Of a stretch of DNA of 13,282 bases, positions 123 through 8,395 are shown piece by piece. Source of the DNA: Thermofilaceae archaeon. Lineage in GTDB: Archaea; Thermoproteota; Thermoprotei; Thermofilales; Thermofilaceae. The stretch covers positions 1 to 13,282 of the forward strand of contig JAVYWK010000041.1 in assembly GCA_038727095.1 (NCBI GenBank), given 5' to 3'. The position numbers and the translations under genes were made by a program. The notes beneath the pieces were generated by a model that did not search any database, was not told where the DNA came from, and was given only the letters and a program-made list of their open reading frames with translations. Each line of letters opens with the position of its first letter. The stretch's first letter is position 1.

Positions 123-294
123 CGCTTCAACTGTTTCAGCTCCCTTGAGGCTGCGGCTCCTGCTGCTTCCCTCACTTCGCACGCTTAACTCCGATGCTTC
201 GACTCCGATGCTCCGCTCGGCTGCCGCTGCTTTCGCGCTGAACTGTAACCGCTTAACGCCGCTCAAAGCTGCCGAGAAGTACTGCGCTTAACGC
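123..294. repeat. Dispersed short direct repeats CGCTTAAC(GC) plus a tandem ACTCCGATGCT duplication
   Basis: CGCTTAAC at 182-189, 250-257 and 285-292 (the last two extend to CGCTTAACGC, 35 bp apart). Variants: CGCTTCAAC 123-131, CGCTGAAC 236-243, CGCTCAAA 260-267. ACTCCGATGCT at 188-198 and 202-212. Confidence 0.55.
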
Positions 295-540
295 TCCCCA
301 GCCCCTTGCGGGGGTTTGGGGTTTCCGGTTGTGCCGGCCCCCCGCATCCCTCCGCCCTGGATGAAGCTCTCGCGGAGGGAGGGCGTACGGTAGGGAGCGG
401 ATGGGGGTCGGCATGGTTGCGGAGACCCCCACAACCCTCCGATGGGGGCGGGGGGAGGAAAAGGCCAAACAGCTGGGCGCAGTTGAGCCCGCCCCTCCGA
501 GGGGGATCCGGGCTCTGCCCGGTGAAACCCGGAGGGGGGC
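294..540 (+). other. Long imperfect stem-loop (294-457) plus a second structured domain (475-540) overlapping the tnpB 5' end
   Basis: Nested stems: CTCCCC(294-299)/GGGGAG(452-457); GCCCC(301-305)/GGGGC(445-449); GGGGTTTCCG(318-327)/CGGAGACCCC(420-429); TGCCGGCCCCC(332-342)/GGGGGTCGGCA(403-413); TCCCTCCGC(347-355)/GCGGAGGGA(372-380). Second domain: GAGCCCG(485-491)/CGGGCTC(509-515) enclosing CCCCT/AGGGG. Confidence 0.6.
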
Positions 541-1870
541 AGCAACCCCCAAGGCACCGTCTAAAAACTTTGGGGACGGGGAGTGGGGGTACAGGGTCTT
601 CAAGGTGAAGTTGAACAGAGGGTTAAGGAGGGCTCTCATTATACTTTACAACAGGATTATGAACCGGGATCCAACGCTGCCAAAAAGTATCTACTACTAC
701 ATCGAGAGCTGGGAGGCGGTTTTCGCCAACGCCTTCAGCCTGCGGCGGAAGGCGGGGAAGAGGACGCCGCCGCGACCACCACCGTACTTCCTTTTGGTCA
801 AGTTCATCAAGGATGGGAAGAGGATCCACGGCTCAGACGGCGCCCCGGTCGTGGTCGACATAGACCGGGGGGAGCTTCGGATCCCCTGTGTGGGGATCCG
901 GATCCCCCTAACGCCTTCACTGCTCAGAGTTCTTCAAGAGGAGCTTACCTTACAGCCTAAGCCTCAATTCGTACTCCTGCTCCGGTACAACGGGAAGCTC
1001 CGAATAGTGGCGAAGCGGTCGCCGCCTCAGTGGAGGCTCGAGCCTCCGGTTCGGGTGATCGGAATCGACGTGAACAGCCGCTACGGTCTCACCGTTACAA
1101 TCTTCGACATCAAGAAGGACGGAGTTAGGATGGCGAAGAGCCCTCTCCGTTTCAAACCGCCGAACGATACCCTTTACCTGGCAGAAGCGAGCGTGCTCAG
1201 GAAGATTTCACGAGGCCTGCCGCCAACCCCGCCTAGGAACGCCACCGAGGAGAAGCGCAAGCTCTGGCAGTGGGCCCTGGAGAGGGTGAAGGAAAAGGAA
1301 AGGAGGACTGGGGCTTTGACGACAGAAAGAGCCGATCGCCTCCGTCGTCAGTTAGAGCAGGCAACGAGGATAGCGAGGCAGCGCTGGGCCCGAAAACTGC
1401 TGGGAGAACTCCGACAGCTTATCCGCGAGGCGGGAGGTAGGGCTGTCATCGCGGTCGATAACCCTGATCCTAATTCCTTAAGGAACAGTTCCCTCCAGAA
1501 AACATATTTAAGTGCAACGAAACTCATCGAGGATCTATGCCGATACGAAGGGGCCCTCTACCGGAGCGTGCGGGCTTCCGGTAGGAGGTGCCCGCTATGC
1601 GATCGGTTCTGTGAGGAGATAGAGCACCGATACTACCGGTGCAGCCACTGTAGCGTTGTTTTCGACCGCGACTACGGCGCTTCGTTCAGAGCAGGCCTTA
1701 TTGTTCTACCACCGGCACTCGCCGACATGCTCAGGGGGTGGCTGAGGAAGCACCCCCGAGCTTTGGCACCCAACTACGGCAACGGGCCCCAACGAACCCC
1801 ACCTCCGGGCCCCACTTCCTGGGACACCCCGGGGCACTCCCGGGGCGCTCTCGGGGGCCCGCGCGCGTGA
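401..1870 (+). CDS. tnpB: TnpB-family RNA-guided endonuclease-like protein (RuvC + zinc ribbon), divergent
   Basis: N-terminal WED-like strand YRVFKVKL; RuvC-I VIGIDVN (D223); Arg-rich bridge helix; RuvC-II VIAVD (D353, normally E); zinc ribbon CPLC..CSHC (C397/400/414/417); RuvC-III FDRDYGAS (D424); low-complexity Pro/Gly tail overlapping the structured RNA. Start could be ATG 401 or 413. Confidence 0.85.
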   Translation: MGVGMVAETPTTLRWGRGEEKAKQLGAVEPAPPRGIRALPGETRRGAATPKAPSKNFGDGEWGYRVFKVKLNRGLRRALIILYNRIMNRDPTLPKSIYYYIESWEAVFANAFSLRRKAGKRTPPRPPPYFLLVKFIKDGKRIHGSDGAPVVVDIDRGELRIPCVGIRIPLTPSLLRVLQEELTLQPKPQFVLLLRYNGKLRIVAKRSPPQWRLEPPVRVIGIDVNSRYGLTVTIFDIKKDGVRMAKSPLRFKPPNDTLYLAEASVLRKISRGLPPTPPRNATEEKRKLWQWALERVKEKERRTGALTTERADRLRRQLEQATRIARQRWARKLLGELRQLIREAGGRAVIAVDNPDPNSLRNSSLQKTYLSATKLIEDLCRYEGALYRSVRASGRRCPLCDRFCEEIEHRYYRCSHCSVVFDRDYGASFRAGLIVLPPALADMLRGWLRKHPRALAPNYGNGPQRTPPPGPTSWDTPGHSRGALGGPRA

Positions 1871-2123
1871 AGGAGGGTCCACTCCCTGGCCCGGTTAGGC
1901 CCAGACCGAGCTGGGAATCCCCCTCCGGGACGCGCTCCGGCGACGGGGCGCTGAAAGGAGGGGGTGTAGGCCGCTGCCGAGGGCCGCTGAAGGCGGTGGC
2001 GGCCGACCCCATGACACCCACCCCGGTCACCCGCGGCCCAAAACCGCGGAGGCCGGAAAGCGGGCCCCTCGAGGCCGAAAAGGCCGAAGAGGGGAGATGT
2101 GCACCAGGCGCGGAACCAATTGG
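1781..2123 (+). ncRNA. Putative omegaRNA/reRNA (TnpB guide scaffold) overlapping the tnpB 3' end; last ~15-20 nt would be the guide
   Basis: Successive stems: CGGGCCCC(1806-13)/GGGGCCCG(1854-61); CCCCGGGG(1827-34)/TCCCGGGG(1838-45); CCCAG/CTGGG(1900-1915); CCCCCTCC(1919-26)/GGAGGGGG(1957-64) enclosing CGCTCCG-GCGA-CGGGGCG (GNRA loop); GGCCGCTGCC(1969-78)/GGTGGCGGCC(1995-2004, tandem G.U); CCGCGG(2031-36)/CCGCGG(2044-49); terminal hairpin 2065-2094. Position matches the known location of TnpB omegaRNAs. Confidence 0.6.
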
Positions 2124-2130
2124 TTTATAT
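2114..2130 (+). promoter_or_regulatory. TATA-box-like TTTATAT overlapped by palindrome AACCAATTGGTT, upstream of yjbQ
   Basis: The only AT-rich stretch before yjbQ; TTTATAT at about 2124-2130, ~40 bp upstream of GTG 2170; perfect 12-bp palindrome at 2114-2125. Confidence 0.45.
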
Positions 2131-2169
2131 CCGCTGTAAGCGGATGGGCTGGGCGAGCGGCTCGCTGCG

Positions 2170-2592
2170 GTGAGGATCTTGAAGGTCTATTTCAAGGAGG
2201 TAATTGTAAGGACGCAAAAGAGGCGTGAGCTGGTAGATATCACTCACGAGGTTGAACACGCAGTCGATGCAAGCGGAATCAGCAACGGGTTATGCCTTGT
2301 TTTTGTCCCGCATGCTACAGCCGCCGTAGTGGCGAACGAGCATGAGAAGGGTTTAATGAACGATATTTTGAGAAAGCTAGAGGAGGAGTACCCAATCAAT
2401 GGGGAATGGGAGCACAACTTGATCGACGATAATGCAGCTGCGCACCTCGCTTCCGCGTTCATTGGGTCTGCGAGGGTTTTCCCGGTAAAGGACCGCAGAC
2501 TCGTTCGAGGAACCTGGCAGAACATCTTCTTAGTCGAACTCGACGGACCACGCTCTACCCGAAGAATCTTAGTGGAGGTGATGGGGGAGTGA
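2170..2592 (+). CDS. yjbQ: YjbQ/UPF0047 family protein (secondary thiamine-phosphate synthase family)
   Basis: Motifs VDIT, PHATAAVVANE, HN..DDNAAAHL and GTWQNIFLVELDGPR; 140 aa. Confidence 0.93.
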   Translation: MRILKVYFKEVIVRTQKRRELVDITHEVEHAVDASGISNGLCLVFVPHATAAVVANEHEKGLMNDILRKLEEEYPINGEWEHNLIDDNAAAHLASAFIGSARVFPVKDRRLVRGTWQNIFLVELDGPRSTRRILVEVMGE

Positions 2593-3515
2593 GCCTGGAA
2601 GTGGTCCTCGTTGGACACATCGTGATTGACACCATTGTGAAGGGGATGAGGAGGTGGCAAAGCTTGGGTGGAACTGTTGTCTATGGAGCCTTTGCCGCGT
2701 TAAGGCATGAAGCTAAACCCTCTATAGTGTCTAAAGTCGGGGAGGACTTCCCGGACGAGTACTTTCTCTTCTTATCGCGGAACGGCATCGACTTGTCTAA
2801 CGTCAGAGTCGTTAGGGCGACAAGAACGACACGCTTCAAGCTCACTTACAGAGACAGTACGAGGGAGCTTACTCTTCAGTCTAAGGCAGAAGACATTACG
2901 GCTTACGACGTCGAACTCATTAACCTGGACGGAAAGATCGTCATAGCGGGCCCTGTGATCGGTGAATTGGCGCCAAGCATTCTTGAATTTATTCATTCGA
3001 GAGCCGCGCTAACGGCTGTCGATTTGCAAGGCTACTTAAGAACGGCTAAGGTGAAGGGTGAGGTGAGGCTTTCACGTAGTGAAGCAGCAGTCAAGGCTCT
3101 CGAGAGCGCTGACATCGTCCACGCAGACGCGGACGAAGCAGGCGTATTGACGGGTCTTGAACCGCATAACGCGGCAGCATGGATCGTGAGTAGAGGCCCT
3201 AAAGCCGCGCTTGTTACTATGGGAAGCGAGGGCGCTTACGTGGCAACAACTGACAGGGTTCTCTTTGTGCCCTCCCTTGAACCTTCACAGGTGGTTGATA
3301 CAACGGGGGCAGGCGACATTTTCCTAACGATTTTCACAGTCGAGTACGCACGCGGGGCATCTATAGAGGAAGCTGCTGCAATGGCAGCGGCTGCTGTATC
3401 GTTCCGCGTTGAAAGGCACGGATTCGATAGTCTACGTGAACGTTGGATCGTTAGAGGTAGAGCTCAGAGGATATTGGACGGTATACGAACTGTTGCTGTT
3501 CAAAGCAAAAGCTAA
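2589..3515 (+). CDS. PfkB/ribokinase-family carbohydrate or nucleoside kinase
   Basis: N-terminal VLVGH..IDT and LGG motif, SKVGED, VTMGSEGA and the PfkB signature DTTGAGD; GTGA overlap with yjbQ. Confidence 0.9.
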   Translation: MSLEVVLVGHIVIDTIVKGMRRWQSLGGTVVYGAFAALRHEAKPSIVSKVGEDFPDEYFLFLSRNGIDLSNVRVVRATRTTRFKLTYRDSTRELTLQSKAEDITAYDVELINLDGKIVIAGPVIGELAPSILEFIHSRAALTAVDLQGYLRTAKVKGEVRLSRSEAAVKALESADIVHADADEAGVLTGLEPHNAAAWIVSRGPKAALVTMGSEGAYVATTDRVLFVPSLEPSQVVDTTGAGDIFLTIFTVEYARGASIEEAAAMAAAAVSFRVERHGFDSLRERWIVRGRAQRILDGIRTVAVQSKS

Positions 3516-7603: not shown

Positions 7604-8395
7604 ATGTACATCTACGCTACTGTACTGCGCGTTGATCGAGTTTGCGAGGACATTGTAAGCTATGATCTACAGCTTGAGAAAACTCTCGCCTCTAAGCCTG
7701 GGCAGTACATCATGCTGTGGTTACCTCGCGTAGGTGAGATACCGTTAAGCGTGATGCTTGATGAGGGCAAGAAGATACGGCTTCTCGTCGCCCGGAAAGG
7801 AAGGGTTACAACCTACATGCATAGCAACGTTAGACCGGGCTGTAGGCTCTTCCTGAGAGGGCCGCTGGGGCGGGGCTTCACGCTCGAAGTTGACAAAGCA
7901 TTAGTCGTTGGGGGCGGAGTTGGTGTTGCACCACTGGTGTATCTCTGCAAGACGCTGCGGGAGCGCGGGGCACGCGTCACAGCAGCCGTAGGCTTCAGGA
8001 GCTCGAAATGCACCCCGCTCATCAATTGCCTATCTAACTACGCGGTCGAACTCCACGTAGCGACGGAGGATGGAAGCTTGGGGGTCAGGGGTACAGCTGT
8101 GGATTTGGCGGCAGAATTGATCGGGAGGGGCGATTACGACATCGTTTATACCTGCGGGAATGAGCGCATGATGAAGCAAGTTGTTGAGCTTGCTCTGAGA
8201 AATGGCATGAGGGTTGAAGCGTCTCTTGAAAGGTTAATCAAATGCGGTATGGGAATCTGCGGTACGTGCGCGTTAGAGCCTCAGGGGCTCAGAGTCTGCT
8301 TTGAGGGCCCCGTTTTCGACGGCAATACTCTGGCGGAAGTTGAAGACTTTGGAAGGTGGTGGCGGAATGGCGCGGGAAGAAAGATCCCAATATAA
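7604..8395 (+). CDS. pyrK: Dihydroorotate dehydrogenase electron transfer subunit
   Basis: PGQYIMLW, EIPLSV, RGPLGRGF, VGGGVGVAP, TEDGS.G..G, YTCG...MM and the [2Fe-2S] motif CGMGICGTC...VCFEGPVF. TTG 7601 is an alternative start. Confidence 0.93.
   Translation: MYIYATVLRVDRVCEDIVSYDLQLEKTLASKPGQYIMLWLPRVGEIPLSVMLDEGKKIRLLVARKGRVTTYMHSNVRPGCRLFLRGPLGRGFTLEVDKALVVGGGVGVAPLVYLCKTLRERGARVTAAVGFRSSKCTPLINCLSNYAVELHVATEDGSLGVRGTAVDLAAELIGRGDYDIVYTCGNERMMKQVVELALRNGMRVEASLERLIKCGMGICGTCALEPQGLRVCFEGPVFDGNTLAEVEDFGRWWRNGAGRKIPI

Follow-up and report, generated by a model that had tools for sequence, protein, structure and literature searches.

We propose, tentatively and with somewhat less than even confidence, that a long rod-like hairpin (HP1) at the start of a tnpB-like gene in a Thermofilaceae archaeon acts in cis as a fold-back that hides the start codons of the gene and limits translation of TnpB, as the leader of IS200 tnpA does. 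The hairpin lies near the beginning of the stretch of DNA that we analysed (13,282 nt, hereafter the window) and would belong to the 5' leader of an IS200/IS605-like element of Thermofilaceae that carries TnpB only. A transcript holding both arms would form a rod that is stable at growth temperature, and since this rod would bury the ATG at 413 together with a G-rich Shine-Dalgarno-like tract and clamp the ATG at 401, initiation would be blocked or kept very low and TnpB translation held down, the repression being either constant or specific to read-through transcripts that enter from outside the element. Two points in this reading are inferences: a common transcript for both arms, and a reduction of translation by the fold. 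A "translational lock" was among the roles suggested in an earlier note on this DNA, and we adopt it as a reasonable reading, given that the start codons are enclosed and that the pairing appears to have been selected in two relatives; HP1 would then be a further instance of a mechanism already described, rather than a new RNA partner. The features referred to below are collected in Table 1.

Table 1 Coordinates of HP1, the tnpB-like ORF and neighbouring features (window positions unless a locus is named)
Feature	Position	Strand	Remarks
HP1, long rod-like hairpin	294..457	+	64 bp, 7 of them G.U; RNA and DNA folding, shuffles, window scan
HP1 inner part	318..430	+	Common to the P0021-type relative; main stem 318-345 / 397-429
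HP1 apical loop	~359-366	+	
HP1 small apical stem	367-379	+	
tnpB-like ORF	401..1870	+	489 aa (485 aa from ATG 413)
ATG 401	401..403	+	Most Thermofilum homologues have their "MG.." start at this point of the alignment; internal loop of HP1 3' arm
ATG 413	413..415	+	Start in the database gene call (P0002); fully paired in HP1 3' arm
GGGGGU, Shine-Dalgarno-like	403..408	+	4 nt before ATG 413; pairs with 337-342
Three exact CGCTTAAC copies	182, 250, 285 (182..292)	+	Last copy ends 1 nt before HP1
N-terminal extension hairpins	458..600	+	HP2 ~487-540, HP3 ~545-590
GC-rich structured 3' region	1795..2110	+	Overlaps the ORF end; expected omegaRNA position
RSNS8 5' module sites	L001 2687-3003; L002 2716-3033, 612-956; L003 3250-3483; L004 1681-1865		

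Folded as RNA, the + strand of 294-457 forms a single long hairpin with a minimum free energy (MFE) of -108.9 kcal/mol, a value that none of 200 dinucleotide shuffles reached (mean -85.4, sd 4.92; z -4.78). Its pairs comprise 47 G-C, 10 A-U and 7 G.U, in agreement with the one long G.U-containing hairpin that the earlier note had described by eye from the letters, and the three pairs singled out there, T323.G424, G337.T408 and T306.G444, are all present in the MFE structure. The fold remains significant with DNA parameters (-51.7 kcal/mol, z -4.11, 0/200 shuffles as good), and of 875 windows of 170 nt spanning the whole 13.3 kb, none deviates more strongly after correction for GC than the one at 286-455 (residual z -4.58). 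A sliding z-score scan with windows of 120 nt misses HP1, because one such window cannot hold both arms.

Folding of both strands against dinucleotide shuffles, a check proposed together with the hairpin, revealed that the - strand of 294-457 folds too (-91.5 kcal/mol, z -4.03, again with 0/200 shuffles as good), and because this fold is significant as well we describe the region as an imperfect DNA palindrome, which folds on both strands with the + strand favoured. The suggestion that the arms pair only on the + strand is therefore wrong in its "only", while the preference it pointed to holds: the + strand is the more stable by 17 kcal/mol, and all seven non-Watson-Crick pairs favour it, since the partner table contains no A.C opposition, the mirror-image defect, in the symmetric loops of HP1. 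This bias fits single-stranded DNA of the top strand equally well as RNA. A short hairpin competing with the rod, likewise suggested earlier, exists within 294-323 but is marginal (-18.1 kcal/mol, z -1.99, 7/200 shuffles as good). With nearest-neighbour parameters extrapolated to high temperature, HP1 is still predicted at -37.6 kcal/mol at 85 C and -25.1 kcal/mol at 95 C, which makes the proposed role as a thermosensor unlikely.

The gene that HP1 overlaps encodes a divergent but intact nuclease of the TnpB family, with a TnpB/Cas12f fold according to Foldseek, so that its designation as tnpB was correct. The protein has no match in Pfam at 1e-3, its score against PF07282 being 19.3 bits, under the cut-off of 26.3; all 28 of the 28 aligned family members match PF07282 at E<=0.01. 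The RuvC D-E-D triad (D223, E383 and D424) and the CxxC...CxxC zinc ribbon (C397, C400, C414 and C417) are invariant in these 28 aligned sequences, and the family profile matches TnpB-like chains in the PDB with E-values from 2.7e-5 to 1e-3. An AlphaFold (AF2) model of the protein (pLDDT 80.5, pTM 0.72), when compared with the PDB by Foldseek, has Cas12f, TnpB (8h1j, E 9.6e-9; 8iaz) and Fanzor as its top matches, with E-values ranging from 3e-9 to 1e-5 and TM scores of 0.3-0.45. The 79 database relatives, where their source is named, are almost all labelled Thermofilum, Thermofilaceae or Infirmifilum, and the record of one of them, P0004, is labelled Sulfolobales.

The folded core of TnpB begins at residue 63 (nt 587) with a strand at E63-69, and residues 1-60 (nt 401-580), which are encoded by the 3' arm of HP1 and the hairpins downstream of it, are predicted to be disordered (pLDDT ~33). 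In P0003 and P0004 this N-terminal stretch is 72% and 68% identical to that of the window, compared to 65% and 61% for the whole proteins; a disordered N-terminus that is conserved at least as well as the core would fit a constraint acting on the nucleic acid. The N-terminal extension carrying the 3' arm of HP1 is rare: when residues 1-62 were used as a protein query, it was found in only three clusters, namely P0002 (the protein of the window itself), P0003 and P0004.

Both candidate start codons lie in the 3' arm of HP1, as had been noted from the sequence. Of ATG 401, the A and T belong to an internal loop of 3 nt and only G403 takes part in a pair. In ATG 413, which is aligned with the starts of P0003 and P0004 and with the first Met of P0021, the three positions are engaged in A-U, U.G and G.U pairs. 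The GGGGGU tract between them resembles a Shine-Dalgarno (SD) sequence, and HP1 therefore has the arrangement by which a repressor stem-loop is recognized, namely an SD and/or a start codon within the stem-loop. For the rod to act on translation, its 5' arm must be part of the transcript. We found no TTTAWA on the + strand in 1-2100 and no TATA box before the tnpB ATGs, the interval 294-400 included; 8-mers with 6/8 A/T occur only twice in 1-558, at 129 and 241, both upstream of HP1, and none lies inside 294-558. Host genes in the 13.3-kb window do have such TATA-like boxes. Since no TATA-like tract separates the beginning of HP1 from the ATGs, a transcript holding the tnpB ATGs probably holds the 5' arm too. 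One point against the fold-back reading is that many mRNAs in crenarchaea are leaderless, and a transcription start site at the tnpB ATG would exclude the 5' arm from the transcript.

The mechanism has a precedent in IS200, where the left-end inverted repeat (nts 69-138) gives rise to a stem-loop in the tnpA leader; with the SD hidden in this structure, 30S subunits are kept from binding and translation is repressed (PMC4513863). HP1 resembles this Salmonella / E. coli system in belonging to the same IS superfamily, in being a left-end repeat that would fold in an mRNA leader, and in burying a G-rich SD (AAGGGGGU in IS200, GGGGGU in HP1). The IS200 structure differs in that it controls tnpA, in bacteria, through a repeat of ~70 nt and together with an antisense RNA and Hfq, whereas HP1 precedes tnpB in an archaeon, is a rod of 164 nt with a coding 3' arm, and has the start codons themselves paired, its repression being predicted. 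A related principle is the fold-back inhibition of IS10 and IS50, in which transcripts from outside the element hold both halves of the repeat and hide the start, while the element's own, shorter transcript does not. HP1 departs from this in that no internal promoter is visible, there being no TATA-like tract in 294-400; in distant relatives from the RSNS8 metagenome-assembled genome (MAG), a TATA box does lie just upstream of a 46-nt hairpin that bears the start codon.

Signs of selection on the pairing itself were sought in protein records that read through HP1, the nucleotides of the relatives being inferred from their amino acids, and the case for covariation draws on two sequences, P0021 and the 33-residue part of P0084. 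P0021 is a 5'-partial TnpB, 60% identical to that of the window, whose N-terminus aligns across frames (frameshifts allowed) to window 172-430 with a score of 86.3, whereas 60 shuffles averaged 38.8 and reached 63.6 at most; in this alignment, ATG 401 corresponds to the point at which most Thermofilum homologues begin with "MG..". In the main stem, 25 pairs are covered on both sides, of which 21 require no change and two carry compensatory changes (324:423 from T-A to C-G, and 334:411 from C-G to G-C), with one further pair keepable via a synonymous site and one lost at a helix end. In six slid registers, used as a control, not a single change kept on both sides was obtained. The apical part of HP1 (347-396) has no alignment with P0021, from which the second hairpin and the basal 3' arm (431-454) are missing as well. 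By hand reading, the 5' side of P0021 is also shorter, by ~19 nt, and both basal arms therefore appear to come and go together.

The second sequence, P0084, is a 78-residue fragment encoded on the opposite strand, where a Thermofilum contig of 2.8 kb ends, and was the one fragment, with nothing else, returned by protein searches with P0081, the opposite-strand ORF across HP1. It covers nt 301-399 of another copy, that is, the 5' arm. Eight nucleotide changes are forced by its residues: four fall within the 21 unpaired positions, three turn U.G into C-G (306, 329 and 330), and one breaks the loop-closing pair. Together, P0021 and P0084 give thin but positive signs that pairing in HP1 has been under selection. 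A one-arm test over six N-terminal types did not discriminate: 17 pairs were retained, 16 were lost, and slid registers performed equally well or better. P0003, of which the 3' arm only is covered, differs there at several paired sites.

More remote copies were collected by a scan of genome contigs, in which 26 stretches matched and four loci (L001-L004) were kept, all from one MAG and with TnpBs 34-37% identical to that of the window; none of the four has nucleotide similarity to the window leader (1-700), and a blastn search of 170-620 against plasmids and phages gave no match. In the RSNS8 MAG, a 5' module of ~320 nt is common to L001 and L002 (81% identity). It contains a TTTATAAA box, followed at a distance of 29 nt by a conserved GTG/ATG, and this start codon lies within the 46-nt consensus hairpin mentioned above. 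The module precedes two distant tnpB genes and also occurs without tnpB. At L002 612-956 it is joined to a right-end-like sequence matching L002 4263-4444, a combination that resembles a MITE/PATE, which would transcribe omegaRNA directly. At L004, a highly structured stretch of ~1.2 kb with 72% GC (1866-3043) lies between the promoter module and a frameshifted tnpB and ends in a near-perfect hairpin of 130 nt (z -5.77), which begins exactly where the homology to L001 stops. We considered this hairpin as a family-wide parallel to HP1 and rejected it: for P0040, P0041, P0045 and P0052, slid registers do at least as well as the true one, with 3-4 pairs certainly broken in each and 0 compensatory changes.

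These observations bear on an alternative that we regard as unlikely, in which HP1, or its basal extension and the downstream hairpins, is neutral or selfish DNA: a GC-rich palindromic insertion or expansion without a role for tnpB, of MITE-like origin or arising by replication slippage, and tolerated in a disordered N-terminal leader. The predicted disorder of the encoded peptide would agree with this, as would the L004 hairpin, given its start at the end of the L001 homology and its lack of conservation in relatives. The leaders of archaeal TnpBs in this family are, judging from their alignment, modular, with ~130 nt in the type A leader (window, P0003, P0004) that are absent from types B and D, and the 18-19 residues encoded by nt 503-559 are identical in P0034, a protein only 39% identical overall, which suggests a moving or recombining module. 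What speaks against neutrality are the two compensatory and three wobble-to-Watson-Crick changes in the inner stem, the presence of all seven wobbles on one strand, and an ORF that has stayed open through the module in three lineages 61-65% identical.

As to the module itself, the region 458-600, between the rod and the TnpB core, folds with -73.6 kcal/mol (z -3.4, 1/200 shuffles as good), and the loop of HP3 holds the only AT-rich tract of the leader (TCTAAAAA, 560-567). The HP2 region at 503-559 encodes the invariant GIRALPGETRRGAATPKAP, which is identical in P0003 and P0004 and of which 18 residues are identical in P0034; this pattern resembles that of a module whose nucleotide sequence has been conserved or exchanged. 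Just upstream of HP1 lies the cluster of CGCTTAAC copies, to which a copy with one mismatch at 236 can be added. Elsewhere in the 13.3 kb, CGCTTAAC has one exact copy, at 7744 on the - strand, and the N-terminus of P0021 suggests similar motifs in its own leader. The cluster could represent a binding site, or else a repeat resembling a target site.

A palindrome of this kind could also act as DNA. In this alternative, which we consider quite unlikely, HP1 is a single-stranded palindrome of the top strand, part of the left end, and serves either a Y1 TnpA supplied in trans or the replication or repair of the end. IS200/IS605 elements need palindromes at their left and right ends that act as ssDNA hairpins (PMC4615843). 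HP1 resembles the TnpA-bound hairpin of such left ends in being a top-strand-favouring palindrome in the left part of a TnpB element, and its significance under DNA parameters and its strand bias both fit such a role; the contig of another MAG, moreover, ends inside HP1 (P0084), as expected for a repeated element. The hairpins that TnpA binds are, however, far smaller than 164 nt, and HP1 differs from them further in apparently not being subterminal. The sequence remains similar to P0021 and P0084 over at least 45-120 nt upstream of HP1, to ~nt 172-193, and because the similarity of relatives continues upstream, HP1 appears not to stand at the element end; that it takes the place of the short subterminal hairpin normally present there is not supported. 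A left boundary at ~nt 300, suggested by P0084, was dropped, since weak similarity extends in the gapped alignment as far as nt 193. The right end of the element is probably close to 2114-2125, where the palindrome AACCAATTGGTT immediately precedes the TTTATAT box of the following gene. A blastn search of 1-700 against the window found only itself, and thus no hairpin related to HP1 near the right end, and the 13.3-kb window contains no tnpA. Imperfect inverted repeats do link 10-107 with 1827-1866 (70-78% identity over 18-27 nt), which may reflect chance in GC-rich DNA or may be left over from an inverted copy.

The 3' end of the gene is structured in the way expected of an omegaRNA, in line with the earlier description: 1780-2125 folds with -191.3 kcal/mol (z -2.41), the GC content of 1795-2110 is 0.71-0.76, and the ORFs of homologues stay similar up to nt 2071, with C-terminal tails that vary in frame. 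We regard 1795-2110 as probably the omegaRNA scaffold, on the evidence of its composition, fold and position. A further proposal, that HP1 forms the other half of this scaffold, found no backing, as the best duplex between 294-600 and 1795-2110 (-260.2 kcal/mol) is equalled by 157/200 shuffles, so that 5'-3' RNA pairing between these regions gives no signal above shuffles, and HP1 belongs to no Rfam family. At the gathering score Rfam has 0 matches, and at E<=5 on 1-2200 only four chance matches were obtained, none of them HEARO and the best being a miRNA (E 1.7); tRNA and tmRNA genes were likewise not found. The comparison with the 5' omegaRNA (HEARO) of IscB and IsrB holds in so far as a large structured region lies 5' of the ORF of an RNA-guided nuclease. 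HP1 differs in having no Rfam match, in accompanying a protein with a TnpB/Cas12f fold and a structured 3' region, and in overlapping the ORF start; its 3' arm being part of the ORF, it is not a separate upstream RNA gene as in those systems.

Two readings that give the 5' RNA a function of its own are affected by these results. One, to which we assign a low probability, is that HP1 is a functional 5' RNA, whether a processed small RNA, an RNA bound by TnpB (for autoregulation or as a second RNP component), or a cap-like stem that protects against 5'-3' decay. The rod is predicted to be very stable at 85-95 C and favours the + strand, and in IS200 the 5' end of tnpA is reported to be processed to a structured regulatory sRNA (10.1101/2024.06.26.600842). 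Against this stand the complementarity to the 3' omegaRNA region, which does not go beyond chance, the lack of an Rfam family, the overlap of the 3' arm with the ORF, and its narrow distribution, the 3'-arm extension being present only in P0002, P0003 and P0004, while P0021 keeps the inner arm and P0084 the 5' arm. The other reading, for which we see only a slim chance, takes HP1 as a second RNA module, a 5' rod processed from the tnpB transcript that would serve as a TnpB-bound feedback operator or a trans-acting sRNA, giving an element with functional RNA domains at both ends. The cis-acting fold-back remains the explanation we prefer.

Cas12 descends from TnpB, which is itself a compact genome editor. 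To our knowledge, how expression of TnpB is restrained in native hosts has been little studied, and hardly at all in archaea; a full-text search, with subscription journals outside its coverage, found no literature on a tnpB 5' hairpin or on Thermofilum TnpB. In practical terms, expression of these Thermofilum TnpBs would be best attempted with the leader and the first ~60 residues omitted. If the fold-back reading is true, translational locking of the IS200 type would occur in tnpB and in hyperthermophiles as well, in the form of a rod that survives 85-95 C.
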